Below are positions 6,896 to 28,689 of a DNA stretch of 64,000 nt, in pieces. Position numbers and translations under genes: made by a program. The DNA is from a virus. Its lineage: Duplodnaviria > Caudoviricetes. The DNA lies in IMG/VR virus record IMGVR_UViG_3300042940_001591; one strand, written 5' to 3'. The notes beneath the pieces are model-generated. The model worked only from the letters and a program-made list of their open reading frames with translations, was not told where the DNA came from and ran no database searches. Numbering within the stretch: the first letter of the stretch is position 1; each line of letters begins with the position of its first letter.

Positions 6896-9800
6896 TCAAC
6901 CTCCTGGAAGTGGGTCACCTCCTCCACCGCCGCCAACCACACATTCGGCGGTGTCTGTGTTTTGAATTGTTCCATCATTACTAAATATTCTTTGATGTGA
7001 CCCATTTTGGTCGTTAAAAAACCATTCGCCTTGCATAGCTAATCCCGCATCTTCCCATTCTGTTGGGGTGGTTCCATTTAAAAAATATTTATAAGTACCA
7101 TTTAGTACAAACGATTGGTACGGGCTAGTTAATGATTTGGCATTGGCACATGTTAAATAATAAAGATCGGACATTTGCCAACATGTTGAATTATTACCTG
7201 TTACAACTGCATTCGTCGTATTATATGTTGATGAACATGGATTATTATCAATTTTTAGTTGATATTGAATCCCTGTTGAGCAATATGGTGAACCCGAATC
7301 AATCCAATTAGCTGAGGTACTTGGTGCTGAGGTTAACATTGAATCTATTGATGTAAATGTTTGGGCTCCGCTTGTTCCGTTACTAAATTGATTTCCCGTA
7401 AAGTTTGAATTTGTATTTTCATATATATCGTATTGGTAAACAGTACCACTATTACATTCCCATCTTGCCCCACGAGATGTTAAATAAGTAGGTGCTGTTG
7501 ATACTGGTGTTTGTGTTGGTGTTGGTGTCATTGATAATGATGGTACAGGTGTGTCACATGGAGTCCAGTCTTGTATAATTCCACTACTATTAATTGATGC
7601 TACCATTGTAAAGTTACCTGAAGTTCCTTGTATTTTAATTGCATACCATTTACCCGCACCATTAGGTGTTGTACCATCGGTTGTTACATTACCAGTGTAT
7701 AATTGATATGTTATTCCTGATGTGATACTTGTTTCATTTACATAAAGGTTACCACTATTTAATTGGGTATATCCAAGATTTAAGGCTAGTTGTTGTTCGT
7801 TTACGCCACATACTTCCGACTTAATTGTTGTTAAATCAACCGTATCTCTTGTCCACGCAGTAACATATGCGGTTCTATTTTCAGGTGGTGGTGTTGGGTC
7901 AGTACAGCCTGTGTAGGTTGTTTTCTGAATATTTCCATTATACGTGTTTGGTACTTCTCTTTGTGTTGTATATGAACCTGTATATGTAAATTTAACACTA
8001 TCACTTGGTCTTACATATCGTTGTCCAATACCTAAATTAGGAATAATAGTTGTAAATGCATATTCCGTACCAGGTGAGCACTCAGACAATTCATAATATG
8101 TAATTAAAATTGTTGGTGTTGGAGTTGTAGTTGGCGTTGGCGTTTGGCTTTGTGTGGCCGCTGGCGTGGCTGCAGGTGTTGATGTTGGCGTTTGGGTTTG
8201 TGTAGCCGCAGGTGTTGCCGTTGGCGTTTGTGTTGGCGTTTGGCTTTGTGTAGCGGCTGGTGTTGCTGTTGCCGTTGGTGTTGCCGTTGGTGTTGCCGTT
8301 ATAGTGGCTGTTGGTGTTGCCGTTATAGTAGCTGTTGGTGTAACCGTTAGAGTAGGTGTAGGTGTTGGTGTTTTAGTTTGCGTTGGTGTCGGTGTTTGAG
8401 TTTTGGTTTGTGTTGGTGTAGGTGTGGGTGTTAACGGCATTATATCATCACATTGGTAATCTAAACCGTCTCTTGAATTGTCATTAGGTATTGCATATCT
8501 TGGTCTAGGATATGTGTGTTTTGATCTATTAAATAAATTATTTTCAGTTAAATTTCCTCCTGTCCATAAAGTCGTTGCTGGAATAAATTGTTCAATAATT
8601 TTCATCCAATTAGGACTCATTTTAGTTATGAACGCATTTAAATCAACATCAGTATAAGGAGTAAAATTTGTATTCTTTACATATTCATTATAAACCTGTT
8701 CTAATGTAAAGTATGATTTATTATATTTTGATTCACTTGTAGAAATAAAACCATTTAAAACTTCTTTAGTAAATTCTTCGAATGTTACACCTGACGTATA
8801 TTGTGGTGTAATTCCCCCGATTGAAATTTCTAAATTTCTTGATTGTCTATAAATGTCATATTCGATGCATTGCGCGGAAGATAAATAAACCCCAATATTC
8901 TTTCTATTAAGAATTAATTTAGAATCGTATTCGTCATCACTAACACTTATTTTTAAATTGTCTATTTTAGGTTCTAATTCAAAACCATATTCTAATCCAG
9001 GTAAAATTCTAAAATAATTAAAATAATCCTCACCGTATGTATAATCTTTAGGTTTAGTTTTTATAGTTTTAGTTCTTCCTGTTAATTGGAAAACTCCATT
9101 GATAGTTGTACCACTAGATGTACTTTCATCTAAAACATCTGAAGACCTATGACTTAATGTTAAATCATACCAACCTGAACCCTTTTGGAAAAATATATCA
9201 TCTTTTTCGTTTGTTATTTTTCTAGGTAATCCATCAGTATCGACTGGATATTCATCTCTTGTTAAATTAGTTGTTCCCGTTATTGTATTTTCAGTAAATC
9301 CTGTTCCATTATAACCCGTAATAACAAATTCGGTTTTTGTACCTTGTATTAAATTATAAACGTCATTTTGTACGTTATCATTTAATTTAGATTTTACTTT
9401 ATAAACGTATTCGTTTATTTTAATCATTGGTTCGGGTGCTCCTAAAAATCTTAAAAAGAATTCGATTGAGTTCCTTGTACCTTTTGATTTATAAATGTGT
9501 GAAAGATTAACTAATAATCTTCTATAAAATTCATGTTCAGATTCAATTAAGTTTTTACCAATTGACTGTCCACCATATACACTATCTTGTCTTGTGTATA
9601 AAGTATCTTCTATATTTTGTTCATTGAATAAATTATGTGAATCTAACCCTAAATTATCTGATAAGTTTTTTAATAGTAAATCTGGAACGTTATTAATACC
9701 ATCATATGTAACATTTCTCATGTTAGCGATGTTATCAATATATTTCTTTACCCTATCAAAACTTTGTCCATATAATTGAAATATTGTTTCTCCCTTTTTG

Positions 9801-10834
9801 TCATTTGTGTCGAATTCAAATAACTGTGGTGCTGCTAAAAATCTAACAACTAAGTTAGATTTATAATCATCTATCTCGTCAGCTAAATCACTTAATTTTG
9901 AAATGTAATCATCAAAATCTAAACCTACAGTTTGTAAGTTCCATCCATCTAACGCTAACGGCCAATTAACTTCAACAGTAATAATATCTGTTGTTCCTCC
10001 ATCAGAACTATCTCTTGGTACTTTAAAACTTGCCTCGTATTTTGGATTGGTTTCTCTATTAAGTAAAAGTTCTTCTAAGTCATCTAAATTATTAAAGAAC
10101 TCTTCAGTTACCCCATTATTGGGTCTAATTAAAAAACTATTTGTAGTTCCTGTAACTCCACTAAATGGATTACCTGAAACCTTTAAAGTAATATTTGTAG
10201 TACTTGTTGGTTCGGAATATGATAATATATCATAAGTTGTTCCACTATAATCTACAACGTATTTTTTATATGTGGAATAAAAATTTCTAAAATTGTTACT
10301 TGTCTCACTAATCGTTAAACTTTGTGGTTCGTTAATAACAATATCAAATGGATTATATAAACTTGATTTTTCTATCTCAAACTGTGTTGTTTTTGATATT
10401 GTATCGTATGTGATGTTCTGTGCAGTATAATCTGAAATTCTAACAGGTATTGTACCATCAACATAAAGAGCTGCTGGAAACTTTTTTACAATTCTTGAAA
10501 TTGATACGTTTAATCTTTGTTTTAATGAACCGAATAAAGATTTACCGGCATCGTCAGTACTACCTTTGAATTTAATACTTTCTTTTTTCTCTGCAACACC
10601 GTCTTGTGTAGTTACAGCAGTTGTCTCTTCTTTTAATGAATCTAACGTTAAGAAATCCGAAAATGGTGACGTTTTAAAATTTTTACTATCTCTTTGTGGG
10701 ATAATTTTATCTAACGCAAAATTGGTATTGGTTAATTGACTGCTACCGTCGGTAATTTGTACACCGACTAAACTATCACTAAACGTTTGTAATCCATTCG
10801 CCGCTTGGCTTGGTACCTTTGTAAATTTTGCCAT
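6896..10834 (-). CDS. baseplate wedge-like protein (P2 gpI/T4 gp7-like core) with Thr-Pro linker and variable Cys-containing C-terminal modules
   Basis: [10 protein letters not shown]...[28 protein letters not shown] wedge signature; TP repeat near aa 800-910; 1312 aa. Confidence 0.7.
8110..8435 (-). repeat. Thr-Pro/Thr-Ala-Pro low-complexity coding repeat
   Basis: Degenerate GTTGGTGT/GTTGGCGT units encoding [24 protein letters not shown]. Confidence 0.9.
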
Positions 10835-11760
10835 TATTCGGTAATGTTGTCAAAGTCTAAACTTTCATCAATGATTTCTCTCTCTTCTCTAACCTCATAC
10901 ATTGTTTCATTGAATTCGTCTTTAACTTCAAACAAGTTATATTGTTTGTATATTGCGTTATTGTTATTATTATCATAGATGGTGTAGATACCCGGAGTAA
11001 TCGCCTTCGTTTGATTACCGTAAAGAGCGTGAGCCAATGTACTTGCATCGTGTTCTACCATTTCTATTTCAAGTGTAGTTGGGTTAAAAAATGTATTTGT
11101 TAAAATAATGTTTTGTCCTGGTTGTCCAATAAATGGAACCACGTTTGGTCTACTTGATGGTGATGACGATGGTGTTATTGTTAAAAAAACCAAATTTGAT
11201 GTTTGGTCTGTATATTGATAACGTATTGCTTTGTCCGTTGAATTAGACAAATTTGACACTATTGGTTGACAATAAAATGAAGATGTAACAACTCTATAAA
11301 AGTTTGGTATTTTTTGAAAAGTACCATTTGTATTAATATACTCAATTCTATATCCAACTAAACCTTGTGGTGTAAATCTATTTCTATATGCAGCAGGTAC
11401 GTTATTTAAATCAATAACTAAACCCCTTACAGATGGTAATGACGCTAAAACTCCACAATCTGTAATTGATGTTCTAATTTGTTTTGGTCTAAGATGTAAT
11501 GTGTAAACACCAAGTTCTGAGAATTTCTCAGATGTTAACTTCAAATTGTATAAACCTCCCAAGATTTCATTTCCTTGTACATTAGAATCGTCAACAGTAT
11601 TCTGATTATGATATACCGGTGTTAAAACGTCCTCAGCATTTAATCTTGTCAAGGTAATTGGTGCTGTGGTTGTTCTACCAGAAGTATAATGATATAAAAT
11701 CTCAACATCTTCTGGTGATACATCTGCGGGTCTTACAATACCATAACTTCCTACTGCCAT
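10834..11760 (-). CDS. putative virion structural protein
   Basis: 308-aa ORF, TAATG-coupled to the next gene, preceded by TATTTATA at 11779-11772. Confidence 0.6.
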
Positions 11761-11771
11761 ATCTTTTTATT

Positions 11772-11779
11772 TATAAATA
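11772..11779 (-). promoter_or_regulatory. TATTTATA putative late-promoter motif
   Basis: Exact octamer 11 nt upstream of ATG 11760. Confidence 0.5.
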
Positions 11780-11785
11780 TAATTT

Positions 11786-12466
11786 TTATTGTTTTTTCAC
11801 TTTAAAATACCCACCACTATACACACTTAGTTCTCCCATGTTATCAACTTCACCTAATCTTAGGTTCACTTCCATCACTCCTTGTTTACCTCTTTCAACA
11901 AAAACATCAGAATAAACGGTTGGTTGTTCCACAAATCCCAAGAAATGTTCGTTTCTCGTTAATATAGAGTCATATATCGTTTCTTTAGTAAATCCCGAAG
12001 TATTTCCTGTTATCATCGTATAACCGTCCTCATAGTCCCTATAATAAAGATGTTGTGAACCCATTGTTTGCCCCGTATATGTAAATGTATAATCTTTGTA
12101 TTTTAACCCTTCATTTGTTGTACCCGTAGTTACTCCAACATATTCGGTTGACCCATATTTTCTTTTTTCTTCAATTCTACTTCCACCAACCGCTAAAAAC
12201 GTTGTTCCGGTATAACCTGTAATTACACTTATTACCGTCCCGTTTGTTGTATAACCCGTAGTGGTACCAGATGGTAAATGTTGTTCATATGGATATGGTG
12301 TGATTGGTGACTGTCCCAAAGTGGTATTATCGTGTTGATAATAACCCGAATCTCTAAAATCTAAAAAACTTTGTGTTACCGAATCGATAGATGAATACGT
12401 ACCATCTTCCAAAAGGAATGATGGGATAACGAATGACATTGTTGCAAAACTACCGAAATTTGACAT
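11786..12466 (-). CDS. putative virion structural protein (possibly the C-terminal half of a split gene)
   Basis: 226 aa, Thr/Gly-rich, ends VFVERGKQGVMEVNLRLGEVDNMGELSVYSGGYFKVKKQ. Confidence 0.6.
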   Translation of the reverse strand: MSNFGSFATMSFVIPSFLLEDGTYSSIDSVTQSFLDFRDSGYYQHDNTTLGQSPITPYPYEQHLPSGTTTGYTTNGTVISVITGYTGTTFLAVGGSRIEEKRKYGSTEYVGVTTGTTNEGLKYKDYTFTYTGQTMGSQHLYYRDYEDGYTMITGNTSGFTKETIYDSILTRNEHFLGFVEQPTVYSDVFVERGKQGVMEVNLRLGEVDNMGELSVYSGGYFKVKKQ

Positions 12467-12545
12467 AATTTAAATTGTACACTAGTAAATATCTTTACTA
12501 TGTATTTGGTACAATATAAACAATTAATTACTTTTAATAAATGAA

Positions 12546-13154
12546 TTATTCTACGAACCAATAAAAATTAACATCTCTTGATAATCCTGATGGGGTATAT
12601 GTCAATCTATACGCTGAGGTGTTAATTGACTGGTCTGGTGTATAAGTACTTCTTGTCATCCCGAACATTTGTAAAGTTGTAGACCCTATAATACGAGCAC
12701 CTAAAGTACCAGCTAAAAAAGCTCCTGTACTGAGTCCACCTGATGTTGATACGTGTGTAACTGTAAAATCTGTCTCACTTATAAAAGAATAAACATCCGT
12801 CTCCCCAATTATTACTTCATAACTACCACCTCCACCATCACGTCCACCAGCCGCGATAAAAGTTTCAGGTGATGCTCCATATGTGGTGGCTTCTATTGGG
12901 CCTGGTCTATATGATTGTAAAGCCTCTATTGATATATTAATATCCGCCGAGCTACTACAAACACCAGTACTTGTTACTCTAATTGTAACATCTCCCGGAT
13001 TAACCGTAACATTATATCCACTTATTAATGATGCTCTAGAAACACTTGTTGCGTACTGAGTACTTGTACCCAAATGATCAATAATTGCCACTGTAAAATT
13101 ATTTGCTGCCGTTGCCAAATTTAATCCCGTTCCTGTTACTGTTACTACTGCCAT
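12546..13154 (-). CDS. hypothetical beta-rich protein (putative virion appendage)
   Basis: 202 aa; N-terminal module YATSVSRASLISGYNVTVNPGDVTIRVTSTGVC similar in pattern to the N-terminus of the 905-aa protein. Confidence 0.65.
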   Translation of the reverse strand: MAVVTVTGTGLNLATAANNFTVAIIDHLGTSTQYATSVSRASLISGYNVTVNPGDVTIRVTSTGVCSSSADINISIEALQSYRPGPIEATTYGASPETFIAAGGRDGGGGSYEVIIGETDVYSFISETDFTVTHVSTSGGLSTGAFLAGTLGARIIGSTTLQMFGMTRSTYTPDQSINTSAYRLTYTPSGLSRDVNFYWFVE

Positions 13155-13158
13155 ATTC

Positions 13159-13166: not shown

Positions 13167-13199
13167 TTTGTTTTTTTTTTGTTTTATTCTTTTTTTTAA

Positions 13200-16100
13200 T
13201 TAGTTAATTTCTTCCAAATCACTACAGTTCATTAAACCTAACGATGCACACGGTGAAGTGTAATCACTACAAAATCCACCAGGTTCAGCTTTACACGAAT
13301 AAGTAGTAGTACCTCCACCACCTCCACCAGTTGGTGCTACATAAGGGTCGTTACCTCCACACCATTGGCTATTATCACATTTTCCACCTATTCCAATTAC
13401 CATTCCAACATCTTCAACAAATTGGAATCCAGAAACACCATATCTAAATGATACCGATATGGTACTACAAATGTTAATTAATATACCTCCACCTGGACCA
13501 ACAGCTTGTTCGAAATCACCATAAGGTCGAGTAACGTATGTATTATCAGTTTTTCTATATTCAATATATAAGTCTTGACCATTATTCGTTAACATACTTG
13601 TTGGGATGTAAATACTATAACAATTTCCTATACAAGCAGTAGTACCAACCACTCCACTAGTTGTAACACAACCATTAGCATCGGTAACTTCAAGACAGTA
13701 TCCATATTCATCAATACTACTAACAGAAACAGATGGTGACCCTGAAGTTACACCTGTATATGTTCCAACTAAAGTTCCTCCACAGGTATTATAAGGTGCT
13801 GACGTGTCAGCATATAATCTATATGTTTTAGGGAATACTCCTCCAGATGACGACAATGTAATTGCACCATCCGCGGTTCCGTTACAAGTTGCAAATGTAT
13901 CAACCGTAATAGTTGCAGTTTGTTCTGCAGGTTGAGTAATTACTATTGTTGTAATAACATTTACACAACCAGCTCCGTCTTTAACGTATATTGAATATGT
14001 CCCGATACTTAAATTACTGAACAAACCGCTTGATTGGTAATTTTCTCCGTCTCTTGAATAGGTATATCCAGAACCACTTCCACCTGATGGACTTGATACG
14101 GTAATTGAACCGTTAGATCCACCATAACAACTTACATTAGCGGCTAATGTATTTGCGGTAGGTGCGGATTTAGATAATGTTACACTGTTAGAAAATGCAA
14201 CACATCCACCATCTGAAACCATTACCGAATATGTTCCGGTTGGTTTATCTGAGAATGTACCACTTGCCTGTGGACTTCCATAACTTATACCATCGGTACT
14301 AATATAATATGTAAGACTTGCAACGCCGCCAGATGCTGTGGCAACAACTGAACCTGTATTACCTGTCCAACATGTTGGGTGATTTCCCACCGCCAACGAT
14401 ACCGTTATTTGTCCTGGTTGTGTCACCGTTACTGAATACCAATCACTTTCACAACCTTGACCGTCTTTTATTTTGTAATAATAGGTTCCTGCTGGTTTAC
14501 TACCGTATGACCTACTTGTTGTGGTCTCTTGATAAGATCCTCCTGATTGTGTATTAACATCACTAAGTTTAATCGAATATGGTCCTCCTTGTCCTCCACC
14601 CATGGAAGAAATAACAATAGTTCCTGATGAATTACCATAACAATCAACATTAGTAACACTAGTCGATGCTGATGGTTGACTTCTAGCTAAATCAATTCCA
14701 AAAACAGATGAAATACAACTTGGTGTGTTTCTATCTCTTATTTTAGCATAATAATATCCACTAGATAAACTATTAAATGTTGCACTTGTTTGCCATGTTC
14801 TACTAGCATTAGCCGTATCGACATTTAATGAAATTGAATAATCGTATAAACCTGAACTACCAGACCCAGACAATATTATTTGTCCTGTTGTACCTGTCCA
14901 ACATGTTGGTATAGTTGTTGAAGATGTTGTTACACTAAGTTGTGATGGTTGTGTTACGGTTGCATTTGTGCTACCAACTTCACCATATGTATCTTTTGCA
15001 TATATATCATAACTACCAGCGGTTAAATTGGAAAATGTTGCACTAGCTTGGTAATTTGTTCCGTCTTTAGAATATGTATAATTTGCGGTACCTCCAGCAA
15101 CGCTACTTACAACAATTGAACCCGTACTACCATAACATGTTGCGTTAGTGACTGACAATGATGGTGTAATTGTTACGTCGGTAATTGATATTGTTATTGT
15201 TTTATCAAATGTTAAACTTGTACTATCAGTTACTCGTACTCTAATATAATATATCGCCTGTGCTTCGTAGTTAAACACTGCAGCACTTTTTAATACTCCC
15301 GATGTAATTGTGAAACTACTATTATCAGGATAATTTACAGTATCGTGTAATGCAAATGTCATTACACCACCTTCAGGGTCTGTAGCTGAGAATGTACCGA
15401 TTGTTGTACCTGTTGGTACATTTTCGGATATTGACGCTGAACTTATTGAGATATCGGTTGGTGCCTCGTTTACGTTTGTAACTGTGATTGTAAATGTTGC
15501 TTCGTGATATAATCCACCTGCATCTGTTGTTCTAACTCTAATTGAATATGTTGATGGTGATTTAGCCTCATAGTTAAACACAGATGTATTTCTTAAATTC
15601 GCACCACTAATATTAAATGATGCATTATCTGTGTCGCCAGTACCTGCAACTAAACTATATGTAAATGTATCTCCACTATCCACATCCGATGTTGAGAATG
15701 TGCCTATTGTTGTATTTGATGCCGTATTTTCAGCTTGTGATGTATTACTTAATAATAATGCATATGGTGTTTCATTAACATTATTTATAGTAATTGTAAA
15801 TTGTTTTTCAGTATATTGTCCAATGCTATCCGTACTTCTAACTCTAATTAAGTATGAAGTTTTTGATTCGTAGTTTGGTATAAATCCATTTTTTAACGAT
15901 GAACCTGTTATTGTAAAACTACCATTGTTATCATCTCCTGTGCCCGCAACTAATGTATAAGTGTATGTATCACCCGGATCAAGACTTGTTGAACTAAATG
16001 TACCTATGGTTGTACCTGTTGCAGTATTTTCATTTATTGAACTATTACTTAATGAAATATCCGTTGGTGGGTAGTTTGGTGTTGCGGAAGGTGTTGGAGT

Positions 16101-19100: not shown

Positions 19101-20444
19101 TATCTTAGACCAAATTTTAGTAACAAATGTTGGATTATGATACGCGTCATATGGTGAGTAGGGATTTACACCCATATCATAACCATATATCTCATTACCG
19201 CAACCAATTGTAACTTTCACATTAGTTGTGCCTCCATTGAATGATTTATTTTGACCCACAGCCAATCTAAGATTAACCATTCCACTTTTTGTAACAACAT
19301 AAAATGTTTTAGAGGTGTTAAAATTTCTTGGTCCAATTTTTATAAAAGCACCTTCACCAAGTTTATATCTTACTTTTATTAAACTATAAGGTGTTACAAC
19401 ATTATATGCGCCAGAATTTCCAGAATTATATGAATATGAAACTTCACCAATTTGACCACCATATAATCCATCAGTTATTAATAATGATACATCTTCAGCA
19501 CTATCTGTGGCGGTAACTGTTACAGGTACTATTCTATTTTGAGTTGCAGTACCCGCTAATACATTCTTAATTGCGTATTTTAATCCATTTGGTTTAATAC
19601 CTTCCGTTCCGGGTATAAAAGGGGTACTTTCAGTATAATCACTTAAATTAAACGGTATTGTTAATTCCCCTGTACCGCAACCATAACCGTCACCAAAACA
19701 GTTACCTAAATATTCAAATTTGTGTGTTGTTGAATTATAACTATATTTTGTTCTATTATTTAAATCTCCAATACTTAATGTTAAAGTTTCATTACTGCTA
19801 ATTTCAGTTTGTAAATATGGATCAACGTACCATGGTCCAACTGTAAATGGTGTATAATCGGTAATGTTTTTATTCACTAAACCAACAATTGGTGAATTAG
19901 GTAATTTTTCTCTATAATATGTAACTATTTGTGGGCAAGTTGAACAATGTTGGGTTGACGATGTAAACCCTCTACAAAATTCAGCAAAAATTAATGATGG
20001 GTTACAATCTAATTCTACGTTGATCGCTCCACTTGTTCCATCGGACGTAATAACATCTAACATAATAAAACCATTATCTTCGATATTTGCATCCATCAAA
20101 AATTGGTGATATTTTATTGTTTGTGTAGATATATTACCTAAATCATATTCATCTAATATTCTTAGAACTCCGTCTACTTTGTATTTTACTCTTACTTTAA
20201 CTTTTGTTGACCCAATATTTGGAGATATTGGTGTGAATATAAATTTTAAAAGTTTTAATACTTTTGGTATTTTAAAAACATATGTTAGTTTTAAGTCAGA
20301 TAATTGTGATCTTAATAAATAAAATGAAAGTCCACTATGTGTACCGTTTCCGGACCATGTTAAACTTTTGGTGACACCACATTCGTGTGATAGATTATCT
20401 GGTGCCTCCCCCGCTACTGTACAATTTATTTCAAATGAACTCAT
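13200..20444 (-). CDS. giant adhesin-like protein: unknown N-terminal half, Thr-Pro linkers, 3 cadherin-like repeats, about 6 SprB-like repeats
   Basis: 2414 aa; [14 protein letters not shown]...NYE...IRVRSTD...TITINNVNE x3 (cadherin signature); [12 protein letters not shown]...YTYSKDG...[15 protein letters not shown]...TVTQP-type repeats. Confidence 0.85.
16080..16585 (-). repeat. three about 150-bp diverged units encoding TP-rich linker ending in CEFGLSV
   Basis: PTQTPTPTT(V/I)CEFGLSV occurs three times (near 16115-16170, 16265-16325, 16420-16475). Confidence 0.85.
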
Positions 20445-20459: not shown

Positions 20460-20750
20460 TTAACTTGTTTTTAGTCCGTAAATTGGTGAATTTAATCCGG
20501 GAGTATGTTTTATTTTTATTGTCTCATTAATAATACCACTATTTGACGACTTTAGGTATGTTTTATTAAAACGTTCTTCTTTTGTTGAATAATTGAAAAC
20601 GCTAACAGTAGTATCTAAAGATTGGCTAGGTGTTATGAAAAGATTAATACTATATGTACCTTCAATATCAGACACATTAAACCAAATTATTTTATCTACC
20701 TTATTAAAATTGTTCGATATTTCAGGAACTTTTAATGTTGTTATTGCCAT
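20460..20750 (-). CDS. hypothetical protein
   Basis: 96-aa ORF filling the gap between two large genes on the same strand. Confidence 0.6.
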   Translation of the reverse strand: MAITTLKVPEISNNFNKVDKIIWFNVSDIEGTYSINLFITPSQSLDTTVSVFNYSTKEERFNKTYLKSSNSGIINETIKIKHTPGLNSPIYGLKTS

Positions 20751-20763: not shown

Positions 20764-23481
20764 TTATAAACATGTATAATTTTGTAATCCAACTTCACCA
20801 GTTGTTTTATTATAATCATATCCAGATTTACCTCCAAATAAACCATGTACAAAATAATTTAAATTGAATGGTAATGTACCGGCAGCATCTTGGAAAACAT
20901 AACTTGGTGGTGAAAATAAAGTAGGTCCTGGTACGTAATAGAAACTAATTGGATACCCTCCACACATATTATTATTATCTTTAACATTACTAAAATATCC
21001 AACCATATAATATTCAGCTGAGGTATCATTGTAATATATATCGGCAGGTGTTACCGTTCCTGAACATGAATCACCTTGTGAAATTGAAACTCCTTGTCCA
21101 TATCCGCTATCTTTTATTCCACAAGTTGTGAATATTTCACCAGCGGTTAATATTCTAGTTCTCCAAGCTCCAACACAACTAACCCACCCAATTGTGGTTT
21201 CTATCTCACTATTAGAAACAAATGTTATTTCTAAACAATCGTCAGTTCCGGCATTACATGAATAACCACTATATAACTCAGTGAATGACGCCAAATCGAC
21301 ATATGGTGTACCGCCGGTCAATGATTCATAAACGTAACAATCATCTATTCTGTGCATTCCCGTTGATGATATAAACTTATAAACGGTATCAGTATTAGTA
21401 TCGTATTTTATATAACCAGGATCTGTTACATTTATTTGAGTTCCGGTAATGTATGTTTTAGTAACTAAATTACTACCACAATCTAATGTACTTGGACATT
21501 CAATTTTTATTGTTAATGTATAAGGTATAAAGATGTTTTCATATGCTGTTGAATACACAACCACATCCATTGTTGTTTTTTCTTTTGTACTATAAAAACC
21601 AACAACATCTTCTTGGTAAACAACTTGTCCGAGTGTTGATGAGTATGCTTCACCTATTTTTTCATCATAATTACCCACAAATACTTCATCCGATGAATTC
21701 AATGAGGTATATGATACAGTTACAGGTACGTTACCATAAGTTTGACCAATGTCAAATTTAGTGTTTATGTATGTATAACCTGGTGATGATATAGTAAATT
21801 GATATTCCGTATTACTACATGAAACACTTTTAAATATATTACTTAAAGTTGCACAATCTCCATCTCTTTCTACTAATCTTGAATTATTTTGTGGTGATGC
21901 ACATTCTTCACCATTTTGTATACAAACATATGCTTCTGTTGAACAGTTGTCCGTACAAATATAATCTACATATGTACCTGGATTTGAGAACGTTAGGTAA
22001 TCCATATCTCCGGTAGTTGTTCCGCATGGATAATAATAAACATATACTTTACCGTCAGTACTTAAATTAATATCTCCTTGTGTGATAACGATATCATATG
22101 AAGTACATCCAGCACAATCTCTTGGTGTACTTGTTGGTGTAGGTGTAAGAGTTTTGGTTGGTGTTGGTGTTATAGTTGGTGTTGGTGTTATAGTTGGTGT
22201 TGGTGTTATAGTTGGTGTTGGTGTTGGTGTTGGTATAATTGTTCCACAATCAAGATATTCAGTCTTAACACAACGATAGTTACTCGGATTGGACGTATCT
22301 AATAGGTAACCAGTAGGGCAAGAGTAATTAGAACAGAATCCTTGACCTGCCTTAGAACCTCCAGGTAAGTAATCTCCTGTTGAGAATACTCTTGTTATCA
22401 TGGAAGTACTTGTGGCATTTGATAATTCTGATAATGTATTGTTGTAAATTTCCGCAGAAAATGAACCTACACTACTTCTATTCCAGTTTTCTAATTCAAT
22501 AATATTATCTCCAGCATTTAATTGGTAAGGGTATACGTGCCAAAACTTAAAGTTAGATTGTGGTGAATTATCCGCTTGGTCAACTATTGTTGTCCCATTA
22601 ATTTTTATTGTAACATCATTATCACCAGCAATACCGATATAATAAGTTTTTGTTTCTGTTAATGTAATTGTGGTACAAAAACTAACCATCCCCATATATG
22701 TTGGATTACCACTAACCCAAACATTATTATCATTCATTCTTGTAGACCAAAAAGTTTCTACTGTAGTTGTTGATGAACCGTCGTAAAGGGCAGTATTACC
22801 TTCAAAACCATACGTTCCACTTATTGAGTTACCCGTACCATTAAAATCATTTAAATTATAAATTCTAACTCCCCATTGACCGTAGTTTACGTTATCATCA
22901 CCAGCCGCAGGTGTGTCATATGTGTTTAAAGTTGGGTTAGTTGTAACCACTTTATAACATCCAGAATGGTCTGGTTTCATAGTATAACCTTCAGGACAAA
23001 TACATGGTGTTGGCGTTGGTGTAAGAGTTCTAGTTGGTGTTGGTGTAGTAGTTTTGGTTGGTGTTATAGTAGGTGTAACCGTTGGTGTAACTGTATTCGT
23101 AGGTGTTAATGTAATAGTTGGTGTAACTGTCGGTGTTACGGTATTTGTTGGTGTTAAAGTAATAGTTGGTGTAACCGTATTGGTAGGTGTAATACTTGGT
23201 GTAACTGTCACCGTTGGGGTAGGTGTTGGAGTTAATGGCGCTAAAGTAATATCTAACGTATTTTCACAAATAAAATCTATATTTTTAACAATAATTTTAG
23301 TTGTTTCTAATGGTACAGAAACTAAAACTCCATCATAAAAAGTTAATTGACTTAATGTTAAACCAGTGGCTGGACTATTTTCATAGTACAGAGTCGCCAA
23401 TGTAGACAAATCATCATAGTAGATGTTGTAAGGTCCATTTGCGGAGTTCCCCTGAAGTTTAACATATATATACCTTACCAT
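20764..23481 (-). CDS. modular adhesin-like protein with Thr-Pro linkers, PA14-like beta-sandwich and Cys-rich modules
   Basis: 905 aa; two TP tracts; CPEGY...YYIGIAGDNDVTIKING...YQLNAGDNIIELENWN...CPTGY. Confidence 0.7.
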   Translation of the reverse strand: MVRYIYVKLQGNSANGPYNIYYDDLSTLATLYYENSPATGLTLSQLTFYDGVLVSVPLETTKIIVKNIDFICENTLDITLAPLTPTPTPTVTVTPSITPTNTVTPTITLTPTNTVTPTVTPTITLTPTNTVTPTVTPTITPTKTTTPTPTRTLTPTPTPCICPEGYTMKPDHSGCYKVVTTNPTLNTYDTPAAGDDNVNYGQWGVRIYNLNDFNGTGNSISGTYGFEGNTALYDGSSTTTVETFWSTRMNDNNVWVSGNPTYMGMVSFCTTITLTETKTYYIGIAGDNDVTIKINGTTIVDQADNSPQSNFKFWHVYPYQLNAGDNIIELENWNRSSVGSFSAEIYNNTLSELSNATSTSMITRVFSTGDYLPGGSKAGQGFCSNYSCPTGYLLDTSNPSNYRCVKTEYLDCGTIIPTPTPTPTITPTPTITPTPTITPTPTKTLTPTPTSTPRDCAGCTSYDIVITQGDINLSTDGKVYVYYYPCGTTTGDMDYLTFSNPGTYVDYICTDNCSTEAYVCIQNGEECASPQNNSRLVERDGDCATLSNIFKSVSCSNTEYQFTISSPGYTYINTKFDIGQTYGNVPVTVSYTSLNSSDEVFVGNYDEKIGEAYSSTLGQVVYQEDVVGFYSTKEKTTMDVVVYSTAYENIFIPYTLTIKIECPSTLDCGSNLVTKTYITGTQINVTDPGYIKYDTNTDTVYKFISSTGMHRIDDCYVYESLTGGTPYVDLASFTELYSGYSCNAGTDDCLEITFVSNSEIETTIGWVSCVGAWRTRILTAGEIFTTCGIKDSGYGQGVSISQGDSCSGTVTPADIYYNDTSAEYYMVGYFSNVKDNNNMCGGYPISFYYVPGPTLFSPPSYVFQDAAGTLPFNLNYFVHGLFGGKSGYDYNKTTGEVGLQNYTCL

Positions 23482-23512: not shown

Positions 23513-26500
23513 TTATCCACACGTTATTTTATTTATTACTAAATCATATGTTAAGAAACCTGTTGATGTTTTAGTTATTAGTTCACCGCTAACCCATTTA
23601 CCATCTAATCCCATAAATTTATAACAATTACCCACGGTTAACGTTTGTACCGACCTTAATTGTACTCCTTTCAAATATTGTCTATCTGACCTAATATCTG
23701 TAGGGTTTTTGATACTTCTAAATCTGTTATCAATGCTTGATTTTAAGAAAGCAGAATCACAAGCTCCAACTTCTATAGATTCGACAATACCTATTGAATT
23801 GACGTTGTATTTGTTTCCGTTAGGTAATAAATAACTACCTGCTCTGTAAACATTTATGTAACCACCTCTTGGTCCTTGTTGATATAATTGTGAACCTACA
23901 ACTAAAGGTGCTCCACTAGGAATAGATGTTTGTCCGATATTATATTTTAAGAATATAAGTTCATTAGTATGGTTACAAATTTCTTGTCCTGTTGGTGCAT
24001 ATAAGAATGGTGATGTTGCTTCAGTACCTATTGATTGATTACCCATCCAAATAATATTATTACTTCCTCCATGACAAGCTCCCGTATAACTAATACCATA
24101 TTGCCCCGATGATGCCACAATAGGTGTTGCAAAACTTACATCATTATCATAATTGAGATGAGTAGATAAAGTAGAACCATTGAACGCATATAACGTGAAA
24201 TTAGTTGGTCCGTTATAGAATCGTATCATATCTGACCATCCATCGTAATATCCAAAATATAATTCTTTTAATTGTGGATCATAATCACAACACATAGTAG
24301 TTACTTCAATTGTTGTTGGTTCAACACATCCACTAAATATTTGTGTTGTTGTTGGTGTTGGCGTTGGTGTTAGTGTTAATTCCAATCCAGCTGTTGGTGT
24401 AACCGTACTGGTTACAGTCGGTGTATTTGTATTAGTTGGTGTAACCGTAGGTGTTGGGGACGGTGTAATAGTTTGGGTTGGTGTATTTGATGGTGGTGGT
24501 ACCGTACAATCTGAACATGTTGAGTATTCTCCAACAATAACTCCAGAACTTTCTGGTGACATTGACGTTATTCCAATAATTGTGTAACAATTTCCATTAC
24601 TACTTCTTACAATTTGACCATAAGCAGGTCCAAAATTATTAGGTCCATTATATCTTATTACACCTGTATAAACTGATTCGTCTTCAGGAGTATATTGGTC
24701 ATCACATCTTTGTACATCATAATATGTTATTGATGGTACCAAAATTTCTGTAATATCACAATCAAATCCACAGTTTGGTGTAGATGACGGTGTAATTGTA
24801 GGTGTCGGTGTTATAGTCGCTGTTAGTGTAACAGTCGGTGTAGGTGTTGCCGTATTGGTGGGTGTTGCTGTTTGCGTTGGTGTAACAGTTTGTGTTGGGG
24901 TTGGGCAAGTAGTGACTGATGAAATATATGCATTTCCCGATACTCCAAATTCACTAATTTCTAAGATATTTGATAATCCTCCTCCCGATAAATAAAATAC
25001 GGTTGCGCTTGATGATAATGTAATTTGAATATCTTCAATTGTCCATTTTTCAGAACCATCAGGTCCTTTATATAAAAACTCTCCAGCTTCCATTGGTTGG
25101 TCCGCATCATAAATTAATATGTTGCTAGAATAACATTCAAAACAAGATGCATTTAACGAATCTTTAATACAATAACCACTACTATCTAATGGGTTAGTTG
25201 GTGTAGGTGTAACCGTTGGCGTTTGTGTAGGTGTCTCCGTTGGCGTTTCAGTCACCGTTGGTGTAACAGTATTTGTAGGTGTTACAGTATTCGTAGGTGT
25301 AACAGTATTTGTAGGTGTTACAGTATTCGTAGGTGTCTGAGTTGGAGTCTCCGTAGGTGTTTGCGTTGGTGTAACAGTATTTGTAGGCGTTTGCGTAGGA
25401 GTCTCTGTTGGCGTTTGCGTAGGAGTTTCTGTTGGTGTATTCGTTGGCGTTTGCGTAGGAGTTTCTGTTGGTGTAACAGTATTCGTAGGTGTCTGAGTTG
25501 GTGTCTCCGTAGGTGTTTGCGTTGGGGTTTCTGTTGGTGTTTGTGTTACGGTATTTGTAGGCGTTTGGGTAGGTGTCTCTGTCACCGTTGGTGTAACAGT
25601 ATTTGTTGGTGTATTGGTAGGAGTCTCTGTTGGCGTTTGCGTAGGAGTTTCTGTTGGTGTAACAGTATTCGTAGGTGTCTGAGTTGGTGTTTGCGTAGGA
25701 GTCTCTGTTGGCGTTTGCGTAGGAGTTTCTGTTGGTGTAACAGTATTGGTAGGTGTTTGCGTAGGAGTTTCTGTTGGCGTTGGTGTAACAGTATTTGTAG
25801 GTGTAACCGTTGGCGTTACTGTTGATGTTGGTGTTGGTGTTGGCACGTATTCAATAAATGCCTCTACTAAATAATTGTCTCCCGAAAATATACTTTGTGT
25901 AATTTCTAACGAATTACTATTATCAACAACAACAGATTGATCATAAATAACTGTGTTTGTTACAACATCAGTTATTTTAATTCTGTGTCTCCAATAAAAT
26001 TCACCAGTTGTAACCCACTGTGCTAAAAATATTCCTCCATCTCCACCATTAACATATGGTAGTAAATCGTAATTTGCCTCAAATTGAAGATGTGGTGTTG
26101 TTGTTGAAGGTAATGATGATGAGTTCGGATCCCAAATTTTAAATATATCTCCATTTCCGGTTATTAATCTTAATGTGAATGTACTATTATCATCAGGACT
26201 ATCTACTTCGTCATATATTTTAAGAGTAATATTTGAACTTTCCGGTGTTGGTGACGGTGATAATGTTGGCGTTACACTTGGTGTAACAGTGGTTGTTGGT
26301 GTAACTGTAGGTGTAGCAGTTGGTGTAACTGTATTGGTAGGTGTAACTGTAGGTGTAGCAGTTGGTGTTTTGGTTTGTGTTACGCTTGGTGTTATAGTTG
26401 GTGTAACTGATGCTGTTGGGGTTGGCGATGGGGATATTGAAACTGTTGGTGTTACGGTTGGTGTCATCGACATTGTTGGTGTAGGTGTTAAATTTTGAGC

Positions 26501-27121
26501 ACATTCCACCGTAACAGCTTTGATTACTTCTTGAGTAAACCAAGGTTCATTAAGACTTATTTTAATATCTTTATTGCCGTTTGTTGAATATGCCTTTACT
26601 GCGGTGCCATTAACACTAATCGGTGTTGTACTATTATCCCCCCAATGTATTGTAAATTGCAATTCGTCGAATAATCTCGTAGAATTTGCGTTTGTAGTTC
26701 CTGTTATGGAAACAACATTACAATCAACTGAATAGTTGAAATTAATGGATACGGACTGACTTTCATTTCCGATGTTTTTATCAAATCCAACCATTGAACC
26801 ATATTCATCAACTTTAGAATCTAAGAATAATGGTATTTGGTAGTTGTCATAAATTTGTGTTTTAATATATGACTCCGTACCTGTGATTGCATTCCAAGTG
26901 TTTGGTGTTGGTGTTCCCCATCTATAGTAACCAGATGCAACTGTTCCTCCGCTTACATTATAAATTGTGTCTCCAGTTGATGGTCCTACATAAGCATTAC
27001 CTGTATTTCCGGTCCAAGACATAAGTTCTTCGTTAGAGTCATACCAAAAACGACCGGTTAATGAAACCAGTTTTGTTTGTGGTATGTTTTTTCTCTTAAT
27101 AGAATGCCTTATTCTTTTCAT
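23513..27121 (-). CDS. putative virion protein: N-terminal anchor with PKD-like segment, long Thr-Pro repeats, variable modules
   Basis: 1202 aa; FTIHWGDNST...KAYSTNGNKDIKISL PKD-like motif; four TP tracts. Confidence 0.75.
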   Translation of the reverse strand: MKRIRHSIKRKNIPQTKLVSLTGRFWYDSNEELMSWTGNTGNAYVGPSTGDTIYNVSGGTVASGYYRWGTPTPNTWNAITGTESYIKTQIYDNYQIPLFLDSKVDEYGSMVGFDKNIGNESQSVSINFNYSVDCNVVSITGTTNANSTRLFDELQFTIHWGDNSTTPISVNGTAVKAYSTNGNKDIKISLNEPWFTQEVIKAVTVECAQNLTPTPTMSMTPTVTPTVSISPSPTPTASVTPTITPSVTQTKTPTATPTVTPTNTVTPTATPTVTPTTTVTPSVTPTLSPSPTPESSNITLKIYDEVDSPDDNSTFTLRLITGNGDIFKIWDPNSSSLPSTTTPHLQFEANYDLLPYVNGGDGGIFLAQWVTTGEFYWRHRIKITDVVTNTVIYDQSVVVDNSNSLEITQSIFSGDNYLVEAFIEYVPTPTPTSTVTPTVTPTNTVTPTPTETPTQTPTNTVTPTETPTQTPTETPTQTPTQTPTNTVTPTETPTQTPTETPTNTPTNTVTPTVTETPTQTPTNTVTQTPTETPTQTPTETPTQTPTNTVTPTETPTQTPTNTPTETPTQTPTETPTQTPTNTVTPTQTPTETPTQTPTNTVTPTNTVTPTNTVTPTNTVTPTVTETPTETPTQTPTVTPTPTNPLDSSGYCIKDSLNASCFECYSSNILIYDADQPMEAGEFLYKGPDGSEKWTIEDIQITLSSSATVFYLSGGGLSNILEISEFGVSGNAYISSVTTCPTPTQTVTPTQTATPTNTATPTPTVTLTATITPTPTITPSSTPNCGFDCDITEILVPSITYYDVQRCDDQYTPEDESVYTGVIRYNGPNNFGPAYGQIVRSSNGNCYTIIGITSMSPESSGVIVGEYSTCSDCTVPPPSNTPTQTITPSPTPTVTPTNTNTPTVTSTVTPTAGLELTLTPTPTPTTTQIFSGCVEPTTIEVTTMCCDYDPQLKELYFGYYDGWSDMIRFYNGPTNFTLYAFNGSTLSTHLNYDNDVSFATPIVASSGQYGISYTGACHGGSNNIIWMGNQSIGTEATSPFLYAPTGQEICNHTNELIFLKYNIGQTSIPSGAPLVVGSQLYQQGPRGGYINVYRAGSYLLPNGNKYNVNSIGIVESIEVGACDSAFLKSSIDNRFRSIKNPTDIRSDRQYLKGVQLRSVQTLTVGNCYKFMGLDGKWVSGELITKTSTGFLTYDLVINKITCG
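25195..25845 (-). repeat. about 650-bp coding tandem repeat (TPTE/TPTQ/TPTN/VTPTNT units)
   Basis: 12- and 18-bp sub-units such as GTTGGCGTTTGCGTAGGAGT and GGTGTAACAGTATTCGTA repeated many times. Confidence 0.95.
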
Positions 27122-27141
27122 TTATTATAATTAGTTAATTA

Positions 27142-28689
27142 TTAGGAACAACTTGACCATTCGCTTATTGTTCCTACCTCTGAAATAGTTGCTATATATG
27201 ATATTTTAGATTTTCCTGGTAATAAAATTGCATATAATTTACCATTTCCATTAAATGTTTGTCCTCCCGTATTTGAGTCCCATAGTGTATATGTTGTTGG
27301 TGGTGTAATAGATGTCTCATTAACATATAAAGGTCCATATTGTGTATAACCAGCGCCCTGTAAAACATGTGGATATTGATTACAATATTGTTGTAGTTGT
27401 GTTGAGGTTGGGTAACCGCTATTTAATGTATATGCAAATATTTTTTGTGTTCTAATAACTGGAGGTGCAACATAATCACAATTATAAAGTTGTATTTCTT
27501 CTCCGTTAATTATTGTTTTTGCCTTTGTTACCGTATATAACGTGTTACTAGGTTCACCTAAAGAGGCTGATTGTGATCCAACAATAACATAAAAATATCC
27601 TGATGACCCCTCAACTCTTTCTCCACTATTAAATGCAGTTGATAAAACGCTAATTGACCAAACATCGTAATTACCGTCCAAATATCCGGCACTGTTTTGG
27701 AATTCACATGGTCTAAGTTTAAAATAGGAATTAGTAGATTCGGTCCCACTCACTGGCGTTGCAGAAGGTGTTGGAGTTGGGGATGGAGATAATGCAATTC
27801 CTATCGTTGGTGTTGGTGTTGGGGTTAAAGTCATTGTTGGTGTTGGTGATGACGGTGGTGTAATCGTTCCTCCTCCACTTTCATAAAATTTAATAGGTGT
27901 TGCTGTTGTTCCTACTTGAGCACCTTTCGTTCCGTTAAATTTATATATCTTATATGAATAATCTCTTTTATCTATATCAACTTGAAAATACATATCCTCA
28001 TTCTCTTTAATTTCACGAGATGTTGCATATACGTCATTATAAAAATCCGTTATTAAACCATCTTTAGCATTAAAGAATTTAGCAGTCATAAAAAAAGTAT
28101 TACCTGTAGTGGTACCACTTAAATTAGTTTCATCTAAAACACTCTCATCTTGAAACCAAAAAAGATACATGTTTTCCTTGTTTGTATAATTTGAACCGTG
28201 GAAAACAGGTACGTGTATATTTTCTTGTAATGGTGTATAAAAATATTTTTCACCTAACGGTAATGTTAAATTTTTTGTGAATATTAATTTTCTATTTTGT
28301 CTTGTCGGTGCAGTATAACCTGTTACATTACCATTAACATCTAATAAATTTGGTGTTTTATAAAACTCTAATCTAAAGAAACTCTCTGTTGATTGTCTCA
28401 ACATTTTAGCATTTTCCTTGGGTTCTATACCAACTAAACTATAATCTAATCCCTTACTATAATTTCCATTATTAGAAAAATAAAAATAGAACCATATATC
28501 AGATTCACTAATACCATCTGGTTTATGAATATATCTAACAGTTTCATAATTGTCAATTGGGTTAATGATGTCATTCAACACTTCATCTTCAAATTGTTCC
28601 ATGTTTTCTTGCCATCCCAAATTCATTTGGAAGTCAAGTTCGTGGTTCAATACAAGATTTAAATCAGTGTTTTGTCTTAATATTTTCAT
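27142..28689 (-). CDS. putative virion protein with Thr-Pro linker and two C-terminal Cys-containing modules
   Basis: ATG 28689 overlaps the upstream TAA; about 515 aa; C-terminal modules homologous to those in 6896..10834. Confidence 0.7.
   Translation of the reverse strand: MKILRQNTDLNLVLNHELDFQMNLGWQENMEQFEDEVLNDIINPIDNYETVRYIHKPDGISESDIWFYFYFSNNGNYSKGLDYSLVGIEPKENAKMLRQSTESFFRLEFYKTPNLLDVNGNVTGYTAPTRQNRKLIFTKNLTLPLGEKYFYTPLQENIHVPVFHGSNYTNKENMYLFWFQDESVLDETNLSGTTTGNTFFMTAKFFNAKDGLITDFYNDVYATSREIKENEDMYFQVDIDKRDYSYKIYKFNGTKGAQVGTTATPIKFYESGGGTITPPSSPTPTMTLTPTPTPTIGIALSPSPTPTPSATPVSGTESTNSYFKLRPCEFQNSAGYLDGNYDVWSISVLSTAFNSGERVEGSSGYFYVIVGSQSASLGEPSNTLYTVTKAKTIINGEEIQLYNCDYVAPPVIRTQKIFAYTLNSGYPTSTQLQQYCNQYPHVLQGAGYTQYGPLYVNETSITPPTTYTLWDSNTGGQTFNGNGKLYAILLPGKSKISYIATISEVGTISEWSSCS

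Follow-up and report, generated by a model that had tools for sequence, protein, structure and literature searches.

We analysed a 64,000-nucleotide (nt) stretch of viral DNA, hereafter the window, taken from the IMG/VR record IMGVR_UViG_3300042940_001591. Between positions 6896 and 28689 it holds an island with five genes for large proteins of one design: an N-terminal part, which we call the anchor, one or more long threonine-proline (TP) linkers, and short modules that contain cysteines or resemble adhesins. Sequence comparison with related loci strongly supports the view that modules have been exchanged, inserted and deleted at the TP tracts, both between phages and between paralogous genes. 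A preliminary description, made from the letters of the window, had inferred such swapping. Set against more than 40 related IMG/VR loci the inference held: anchors are kept, C-termini are replaced, and many of the breakpoints fall within the tracts. The orthologues clearly do not have invariant C-termini, nor do they lack breakpoints at the TP tracts.

Five island proteins combine an N-terminal part, Thr-Pro tracts and modules

The five TP proteins are encoded as follows.

27142..28695, minus strand: 517-amino-acid TP protein, counted from a TTG start (515 amino acids from the ATG at 28689)
23513..27121, minus strand: 1202-amino-acid TP protein; anchor, four TP tracts, five modules
20764..23481, minus strand: 905-amino-acid TP protein; 77-amino-acid anchor, TP tract, PA14-like module, TP tract, cysteine-rich all-beta module
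13200..20444, minus strand: 2414-amino-acid TP protein; N-terminal region, TP tract with mini-modules, cadherin repeats, SprB repeats, cysteine-rich end
6896..10834, minus strand: 1312-amino-acid TP protein; anchor, TP tracts, three modules

The open reading frames (ORFs), coordinates and tracts of all five were verified. Tracts were called by a window-based composition scan and range from 13 to 222 residues; the same scan found zero in the neighbouring 594- and 1454-amino-acid proteins, as had been described, and none in the small intervening genes. The N-terminal globular region first ascribed to all five proteins is there in each but is not uniform: the N-terminal parts measure 77, 210, 275, 796 and 1282 amino acids, from the 905-amino-acid protein at the small end to the 2414-amino-acid protein at the large one, the latter with a transmembrane-like helix. 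One to five modules follow the tracts. Together the tracts sum to 883 residues, 380 of them threonine and 202 proline (66% threonine or proline). Apart from the five island genes, just one ORF in the entire record of 150,872 bases, of 387 amino acids and beyond the window, has a long TP tract; the tracts are therefore no effect of background composition. That sixth TP-linker protein (G000:C1:105404-106567, minus strand, 9 kb past the window's end; G000 denotes the source record) consists of a 34-residue N-terminus, a TP tract of about 210 residues and a 140-residue C-terminal module free of cysteine.

In the 1312-amino-acid protein, the anchor (residues 1-796) is followed by tracts at residues 797-912, 972-984 (a short one) and 1102-1116 (nt 8099-8446, 7883-7921 and 7487-7531) and by modules at 913-971, 985-1093 and 1118-1312. 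The 2414-amino-acid protein has its tract at residues 1283-1461 (nt 16062-16598), after the 1282-residue N-terminal region. In the 905-amino-acid protein, tracts at residues 78-163 (nt 22993-23250) and 412-455 (nt 22117-22248) enclose the PA14-like module (164-411), and a 450-residue, cysteine-rich, all-beta module (456-905) forms the C-terminus. The anchor of the 1202-amino-acid protein (residues 1-210) precedes tracts at 211-286, 425-646, 737-783 and 873-930 (nt 26264-26491, 25184-25849, 24773-24913 and 24332-24505). The 517-amino-acid protein is the simplest, with its anchor at residues 1-275, a tract at 276-315 (nt 27751-27870) and one module with 4 cysteines (316-517), the end of which is 38% identical to residues 985-1093 of the 1312-amino-acid protein.

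The TP-coding DNA is made of imperfect tandem repeats of 6, 18, 24, 48 and 153 nt and has 41-49% G+C, against 32-37% for the genes that hold it. In the linker of the 2414-amino-acid protein (window 16085-16572) the 153-nt unit recurs about 2.9 times, so that a TP stretch together with the mini-module T(V/I)CEFGLSV(I/V/Q)VL is encoded three times; the mini-module is a very small, conserved, hydrophobic and cysteine-containing insert within the linker.

A constant N-terminus carries replaceable C-termini in the 1312-type family

Scanning IMG/VR with the first 796 residues of the 1312-amino-acid protein, we found 38 loci with 50-98% identity. The matching ORFs are between 797 and more than 2182 amino acids long, and in every case the BLAST similarity to the window's protein ends at residue 775-799, which is the start of the TP tract. 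Four very close relatives, whose 308-amino-acid, 205-amino-acid and primase genes are 96-100% identical to those of the window, make the break especially sharp. Their anchors are 94-96% identical to residue 795 and their post-linker parts unrelated, in ORFs of 1186, 864 and 1110 amino acids. The DNA homology block that runs in from the upstream genes stops within the main TP tract (window 8184-8346, residues 830-887), and past the modules homology picks up again only at the gene's stop codon. Locus L005, with a 98% identical anchor, keeps two of the window's modules at 82-88% identity and has a 284-amino-acid module inserted between two TP tracts. Overall, 23 non-redundant orthologues of this anchor carry 23 BLAST-distinct module clusters. 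Their TP tracts reach 554 residues; there are orthologues that consist of the anchor alone and others that stop in a TP stub with no module behind it. Two proteins with anchors about 58% identical share one module, M4, at 72% identity.

The anchor family as a whole comprises 1898 representative clusters. Of the matches in the 150 top-scoring representatives listed, nearly all start no further than about 80 residues from the N-terminus; the proteins concerned are up to 3037 amino acids long, and the shorter entries are fragment-like. TP tracts are confined to the closest subclade of the family: of the first 60 representatives, 51 are full-length proteins and 20 of these have a tract, against 0 of 79 for the next 90. 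The modules of distant members include a BNR propeller and a weak match to CBM5/12. As the N-terminus is constant and the C-terminus variable even in these TP-free proteins, the arrangement is an old trait, and the Thr-Pro joints are its clade-specific version.

Module exchange extends to the other island genes

Comparison of the 2414-amino-acid protein with its homologue in L046 gave 44-59% identity over the N-terminal 1282 residues and 91.6% over the 952 residues after the TP tract. With L043 identity is 92% before the tract and 75% after it, up to a different SprB array. The PA14-like module of the 905-amino-acid protein is 99.6% identical in L046 and absent from L043, where the DNA blocks on either side of the deletion end within the two flanking TP tracts of the gene. 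The 450-residue C-terminal module of the same protein stands, 86-92% identical, behind a 1202-type anchor in L045; it also ends an 1833-amino-acid protein in L044 and occurs, TP-free, behind unrelated N-termini of 75-85 residues in many database proteins. SprB repeats like those of the 2414-amino-acid protein are carried on a 905-type anchor in L022 and L018. The anchor of the 517-amino-acid protein stands alone, at 269-277 amino acids and without TP tract or module, in seven relatives (L028, L030, L032, L036, L039-L041), and homologues of the 1202-amino-acid anchor in relatives measure 309-957 amino acids.

TP tracts are the main joints of the mosaic

Counting the ends of major DNA homology blocks by hand in four relatives, we found 10 of 18 within 60 nt of a TP tract; tracts with their margins amount to 18% of the island's length (binomial 5e-4, a rough count of events that are not independent). 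The other ends lie in a divergent patch of the N-terminal region of the 2414-amino-acid protein, in the SprB array and in small variable genes, and they speak against exchange at the tracts alone; the TP tracts are therefore the main joints and not the sole ones.

The tracts of different genes resemble one another. They share in-frame exact matches of 17-29 nt (control mean 8.7), and alignments between them, every one in frame, cover 50-340 nt at 65-85% identity, so that homologous or homeologous exchange with the frame kept is possible. We tentatively infer that the tracts serve as a substrate of recombination rather than as a merely tolerated junction. The rival view is that they are no hot spots: recombination would be random, and selection would keep only those products whose junctions lie in linkers. 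This would accommodate the shortness of the exact shared stretches, the block boundaries elsewhere in the island and the distant anchor-family members that vary their C-termini without a TP tract. It does not account as readily for the long in-frame likeness between tracts of different genes, for insertions and deletions bounded by two tracts, as unequal crossing-over would give, or for differences in tract length between near-identical phages. We regard random recombination filtered by selection as possible but on the unlikely side, and continue with the tracts as the favoured substrate.

Because TP-coding DNA is repetitive, the mosaicism could also be an assembly artefact, with short-read assemblies jumping from one repeat to another; Logan contigs do break at two of the tracts and have many repeat-mediated joints. 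Several findings argue against this. The correct syntenic genes follow the replaced modules, with no second repeat at which an assembly could jump back; the architectures turn up again in samples independent of one another and in protein databases; and one lake-run contig of 17,108 nt matches window 6800-22155 with 0 differences, spanning the TP regions of the 1312- and 2414-amino-acid genes. An artefact is extremely improbable. Joints in lake contigs that link the TP tracts of different genes were left unused as evidence of recombination, as their sides, of 21-39 nt at 90% likeness, are prone to come from repeats or other organisms.

At the same 90% likeness, TP-coding bins of the window (7467-8800, 16138-16804, 22141-22807 and 24142-26142) have 2-12 times the depth of their flanks in lake contigs, an excess from which it follows that similar TP-coding DNA is abundant in other community members. 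Tracts coding for (TP)6 occur on more than 120 IMG/VR contigs, a lower bound, with many lying in long cysteine-rich ORFs on contigs of 31-37% G+C. Taken with the over-covered bins, these contigs indicate that the design is widespread among uncultured phages.

The modules are beta-rich, adhesin-like and often bracketed by cysteines

The 2414-amino-acid protein carries the most recognisable modules. It has three cadherin repeats (PF00028, 68.6 bits, cut-off 28.8) at about residues 1469-1758, which match cadherins of the PDB with E down to 4e-15, then SprB repeats (PF13573, 79.5 bits) in at least five stretches, and a cysteine-rich end. Giant adhesins of bacteria, gliding-motility and type 9 secretion system (T9SS) proteins of Bacteroidota among them, have cadherin repeats 40-55% identical to these. 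The exact 2414-amino-acid protein also occurs on a 206-kb contig. Those bacterial homologues have a T9SS type B sorting domain (PF13585); none was found in the phage protein by Pfam at E <=0.01. In the 905-amino-acid protein, the PA14 match (PF07691) is partial (residues 265-307) and, at 19.8 bits against a cut-off of 24, below threshold.

Structure prediction gave a folded module and no fold for the anchor of the 1312-amino-acid protein. An AlphaFold2 model of the 450-residue module, built with 18 homologues, reached a mean predicted local distance difference test (pLDDT) score of 77 and is all-beta, with 4-5 small domains that include beta-sandwiches. Residues 94-212 form a jelly-roll with Z scores of 7-9 to GOLD, CUB and carbohydrate-binding module (CBM) folds and to the PRD1 P5 head. 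Scores of this size commonly arise, so we take the model to suggest a binding-type fold and no more; Foldseek returned only matches of low template-modelling score, to strings of beta-sandwich domains.

Cysteines are rare in the N-terminal parts, with 0-2 in the 275-, 210- and 796-residue anchors, and dense in the post-linker modules, as in the 19 within the 450-residue module, of which an 18-sequence alignment finds 13 invariant or nearly so. In 15 of 37 post-linker modules from the window and its orthologues, a cysteine lies within 12 residues of both ends; shuffling of residues inside each module leads one to expect 3.4, and 0 of 2000 shuffles reached 15. From this placement a disulfide that fastens one end of a module to the other is plausible, a feature that would suit an insertable cassette. 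A search for an Erv1-type sulfhydryl oxidase gave no match, and gave none in control genomes either, which makes it uninformative; the thioredoxin present in the phage is equally uninformative about disulfides.

The transmembrane-like helix of the 2414-amino-acid protein lies near residues 693-725 (window 18270-18370). Homologues in L043, L044, L046, L027, L026 and L045 all keep such a segment at about residues 650-725 (Kyte-Doolittle 2.1-2.7 over 19 residues), within sequence that is only 34-92% identical; it would be unexpected in a presumed tail protein.

The island probably encodes baseplate-associated adhesins

The island follows directly on two adjacent, co-oriented baseplate wedge genes. 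The remaining features of the block, in order of transcription, are listed here.

36726..37178, minus strand: gp25-like baseplate wedge gene, 150 amino acids, first in the block (Pfam PF04965 GPW_gp25, 47.3 bits, cut-off 27.2)
34895..36724, minus strand: gp6/J-like baseplate wedge gene, 609 amino acids (PHROG 6 and PHROG 219 'baseplate wedge subunit', E 2e-21)
30473..34837, minus strand: 1454-amino-acid gene, no TP tract; follows the gp6-like gene in all relatives (the position of T4 gp7)
28689..30473, minus strand: 594-amino-acid core gene, no TP tract, 52-64% identical in relatives
20460..20750, minus strand: 96-amino-acid gene accompanying the 2414-amino-acid gene, 90-93% identical in relatives, absent from compact relatives
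12546..13154, minus strand: 202-amino-acid variable gene, no TP tract, 67-93% identical in near relatives
11786..12466, minus strand: 226-amino-acid gene; its C-terminal domain (residues 83-226) is the C-terminal half of a 310-400-amino-acid protein in compact relatives
10834..11760, minus strand: 308-amino-acid core gene, 98-100% identical in near relatives
5243..6859, minus strand: 538-amino-acid variable gene, no TP tract, 82-86% identical
4586..5203, minus strand: 205-amino-acid conserved gene, last in the block, 100% identical in relatives
4484..4509, minus strand: intrinsic terminator-like hairpin (10 pairs, 6 of them GC, and a T-run), closing the block from gp25 to the 205-amino-acid gene

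The gp6/J-like gene also matches Pfam Baseplate_J (PF04865), at 21.2 bits against a cut-off of 21.1, and the 1454-amino-acid protein is without a match in Pfam, PHROG and PDB sequence searches. The minus strand carries all long ORFs at 4.5-37.2 kb of the window, and the gaps between ORFs from the gp25-like to the 205-amino-acid gene are 0-90 nt. On account of this tight co-oriented packing and of the strong hairpin (4509-4484) behind the last gene, the island and the wedge genes most simply form one late unit.

From this synteny and from the types of domain encoded, the island probably specifies baseplate-associated modular adhesins that bind a receptor or another surface. Linkers of low complexity and small modules of all-beta, cadherin and SprB type fit tethered modules rather than trimeric fibres; fibre repeats, a triple beta-helix and C-terminal chaperone domains were not found by Pfam or PHROGs. 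The display on baseplate or tail first proposed for these proteins has support from gene context, in the position behind the gp25/gp6-like genes and in the sheath, tube and hub genes of the same window; a likeness of the anchors to known peripheral baseplate proteins has not emerged. The comparison with a cellulosome likewise stands for the Pro-Thr linkers and fails for cohesin and dockerin, for which none of the five proteins has a Pfam match at E <=0.01.

The points that weigh against a place on the baseplate are these. The presence of the five proteins in the virion is a prediction. A cultured relative is absent: when the island, the 905-amino-acid protein, the 1312-amino-acid anchor and the 1454-amino-acid protein were searched, as DNA and protein, against 50,697 GenBank phages, there were zero matches. 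The 1312-amino-acid anchor has no match in Pfam, in PHROGs or, searched with an anchor profile, in the PDB. Its AlphaFold model reached a pLDDT of 50, and an assignment of fold was dropped, as the confident part (residues 101-325) gave a Z of only about 5. Compared by hhalign, five family alignments, those of the 594- and 308-amino-acid proteins included, gave at best a probability of 4% (the 517-amino-acid anchor with gp11), so that the anchors have no detectable similarity to T4 gp8, gp9, gp10, gp11, gp12 or wac, given single-sequence targets of low sensitivity. The fold matches of the 450-residue module are generic beta-sandwiches. Lastly, the putative anchor of the 2414-amino-acid protein, highly variable and with its transmembrane-like helix, does not fit a simple baseplate plug. 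PHROGs returned for the TP proteins only phrog_15511, on low-complexity tracts, and ESM Atlas leads that tied the anchor to wedge families scored below the reliable level and were not used.

Two other locations were weighed. The proteins could decorate the virion and stick the particle to organic particles, mucus or a biofilm matrix, as proposed for Ig-like Hoc-type proteins, with no part in host range. Cadherin, SprB and beta-sandwich domains are generic adhesion domains, and the modules seem dispensable in compact relatives, which do without the 905- and 2414-amino-acid genes and in some cases without any module after the anchor. We nevertheless consider surface decoration unlikely: the genes sit in the baseplate block and not among head genes, their extreme turnover among near-identical genomes is what one expects of host-recognition determinants, and the BNR propeller of distant family members is typical of receptor-degrading tail spikes.

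Alternatively, the proteins might never enter the virion and instead be exported to, or anchored in, the membrane of the infected cell, acting in superinfection exclusion, aggregation or interference with gliding. The resemblance of the cadherin repeats to those of giant bacterial surface adhesins and the conserved transmembrane-like helix would suit such a role. Against it stand the five sequences themselves, none with a visible signal peptide or lipobox at its N-terminus, the absence of a T9SS C-terminal domain in Pfam scans, the co-oriented packing right behind the wedge genes, and the 1312-type anchor family itself, whose unnamed ESM Atlas clusters are purely viral. A cell-surface role is accordingly very improbable, and baseplate-associated adhesins remain our preferred reading.

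On that reading, the conserved N-terminal part would fix each protein to the tail, and the Thr-Pro tracts, judging by their composition, would act as extended, flexible spacers. With a polyproline-II rise of about 0.3 nm per residue, tracts of 116 and 222 residues could reach up to about 35-70 nm. The small, independently folding, beta-rich modules (cadherin, SprB, PA14-like and jelly-roll or CBM-like, many of them bracketed by cysteines) would bind the surface of a host or particle. The repetitive ACN-CCN DNA that codes for the tracts, higher in G+C than the genome elsewhere and always read in one frame, would be the joint at which modules are exchanged, inserted or deleted, between paralogous genes as well as between phages and with a product that is always in frame. 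The outcome may be a cassette system that varies what the tail displays and leaves the attachment parts constant.

Glycosylation leads point to a possible mucin-like appendage

Known members of the GT60 glycosyltransferase (GT) family (PF11397) add N-acetylglucosamine to protein threonine, serine or hydroxyproline. PF11397 is absent from the source phage's own record, judged 45% complete, which holds a GT2 gene (28 bits, above cut-off) and two weakly GT1-like ORFs 15-20 kb past the window. In the relative G001, a record of 323,865 bases and 97% complete, PF11397 scores 232 bits and heads an operon (L175:1657-10936) with a HAD hydrolase, a PLOD-type GT-like protein, an FkbM methyltransferase, a GT10-like protein and TylF/HtrL-type proteins as its partners. 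The operon is a candidate pathway for synthesis and capping of a protein glycan. Of the 26 ORFs in this 20-kb region of G001, 0 have a counterpart in the source record; the region therefore falls in the missing half of the source genome.

Among 20 IMG/VR records of at least 50 kb picked solely for a (TP)6-coding tract, 8 have PF11397 (73-210 bits), against only 4 of the 50,697 GenBank phage records. Full-length matches to the anchor family occur in 4 of the 20, 3 of these being among the eight with PF11397, and in two of them the GT60 and anchor genes are 4-6 kb apart. Given this overlap, the association of GT60 with TP tracts is partly one of shared descent. Glycosylation of the tracts within the clade is a reasonable hypothesis on this genomic evidence.

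One of the four GenBank phages with PF11397 is the Xanthomonas jumbo phage XacN1 (AP018399.1). Like the source phage, it has gp25/gp6-like wedge genes, followed by a giant ORF325 (3313 amino acids) with cysteine-flanked TP tracts; it further encodes several other TP-tract proteins and a GT60-family enzyme (ORF334) 50% identical to that of G001. The combination is found at AP018399.1 203370-213311 and 222135-223508 (our loci L176 and L182). Its virions are reported to contain at least two glycoproteins stained by the periodate-Schiff (PAS) method and to show no visible classical tail fibres, and the identity of the glycosylated proteins is left unreported (PMC5852040). XacN1 differs from the source phage in its gamma-proteobacterial host and in the shortness of the ORF325 tracts (22-35 residues), and BLAST of ORF325 against the window's proteins found no similarity. 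With wedge genes, a giant TP protein, GT60 and stained virion glycoproteins together, XacN1 could be an experimental proxy.

A more far-reaching and tentative possibility, which we think doubtful as a whole, is that the island encodes mucin-like tail appendages, O-glycosylated in the cytoplasm by a phage GT60 operon, closed end to end by disulfides after release, and diversified by a dedicated in-frame exchange of TP cassettes. Such appendages would be a phage counterpart to the mucin-domain adhesins of eukaryotes and to the modularity of bacterial cellulosomes; no description of them was found in the literature searched.

Relation to known modular adhesins

Tailspike and depolymerase proteins of Klebsiella and other phages join a conserved N-terminal anchor to an exchangeable C-terminal domain. 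Lactococcal phage baseplates bear accessory carbohydrate-binding modules, as BppA of Tuc2009 (PMC4742702) and in evolved Dit and Tal proteins (PMC7533335). The island shares with these modular receptor-binding proteins a constant attachment part and a variable binding part, additional modules that would be borne on the baseplate, and exchange among relatives. It differs in its Thr-Pro joints of 40-222 residues (up to 554 in relatives), in the beads-on-a-string arrangement of modules and in having 5-6 such genes per genome; Pfam and PHROGs revealed no homology to these proteins and no trimeric beta-helix or fibre repeats.

In the gp38 adhesins and distal tail-fibre genes of T-even phages, conserved glycine-rich motifs bound hypervariable segments and are proposed recombination sites (PMC3157838). 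There, as in the island, short conserved repetitive motifs in a host-recognition gene mark the points of swapping. The gp38 motifs are structural parts of one compact domain; the repeats of the island are long unstructured linkers between which whole folded domains are exchanged.

Pro-Thr 'box' linkers also join carbohydrate-binding modules to catalytic domains in the CenA and Cex proteins of Cellulomonas fimi, and they are O-glycosylated in the native host. These proteins resemble the island's in their (PT)n spacers between independently folding, often cysteine-containing beta-sandwich modules, set out as a multi-modular string. They are secreted bacterial enzymes, unlike the phage proteins of the island, which lie in a baseplate gene block, have no signal peptide and contain no catalytic domain that Pfam could find. 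An anchor with a swappable binding domain and swapping bounded by motifs are known concepts (PMC3157838, PMC4742702); in the literature searched, the coverage of which is incomplete, the Thr-Pro-jointed design is undescribed for phage proteins.

Of all aspects of phage biology, host recognition is the hardest to predict, and these natural variants offer a clean case in which whole binding domains have been moved between constant attachment parts at a joint recognisable in both DNA and protein. If the proteins are on the tail, Thr-Pro tracts would be an easy marker of hypervariable adhesin genes in uncultured large phages of Bacteroidota (about 1,900 anchor clusters) and a natural blueprint for swapping binding modules. 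In combination with the GT60 operon of relatives and the stained glycoproteins of XacN1, they would also make phage-encoded, mucin-type glycosylation of virions directly testable.

Compact relatives and the source genome

More distant relatives have a compact locus, in the order gp6-like, 1454, 594, 517-type anchor only, a 310-400-amino-acid protein, 308 and the 1312 homologue, from which the 905-, 96-, 2414- and 202-amino-acid genes are absent. The window's island is therefore an expanded, derived state. The 310-400-amino-acid protein is a 1202-type anchor fused to the C-terminal domain of the 226-amino-acid protein (L028:8082-9011, L031:7845-9050, L041:8123-9055, L029:7952-9052 and L030:8102-9049); in the window, the 1202- and 226-amino-acid genes are about 11 kb apart, with the 905-, 96-, 2414- and 202-amino-acid genes between them.

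The source is a large T4-like phage from lake water with a probable host among the Bacteroidota. Its record encodes T4-type replication proteins like gp41, gp61, UvsX and gp32 as well as a ribonucleotide reductase, tail sheath, tube and hub genes are present within the window, and near-identical DNA was found in at least 17 lake-water metagenome runs from 2020-2024. RNA pieces from lake runs that fall on the window are 42-151 nt long with 1-7 differences each and hence do not show expression, and scans for the T4 late promoter (TATAAATA) and for sigma-70 promoters found them at chance level. The closest cultured phage by the gp6-like protein, at 28% identity, is Flavobacterium phage immuto, whose genes behind the gp6-like one carry annotations as tail fibres and spikes and are free of TP tracts.

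The 'moraphages' are aquatic phages of 200-307 kb with predicted Bacteroidota hosts; the main text that describes them does not use the word 'proline' and uses 'repeat' once, for direct terminal repeats (PMC12619734). The source phage and its 324-kb relative resemble them in T4-like gp25, gp6, sheath and tube core genes, glycosyltransferases, PhoH and dUTPase, a likeness of gene content and habitat.

Within the window, genes for the ribonucleotide reductase, a DnaB-like helicase, an exonuclease and UvsX-like and gp32-like proteins (37269-46828) lie between the hub/tube/sheath group and the gp25/gp6 group, and the tail module is therefore split. Between hub, tube and sheath and the replication genes are three further large minus-strand ORFs, at 47078-52873, 53183-57934 and 57956-59884 (1931, 1583 and 642 amino acids). 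None of the three has a PHROG match; a 108-amino-acid gene among them has a weak match to a wedge subunit.

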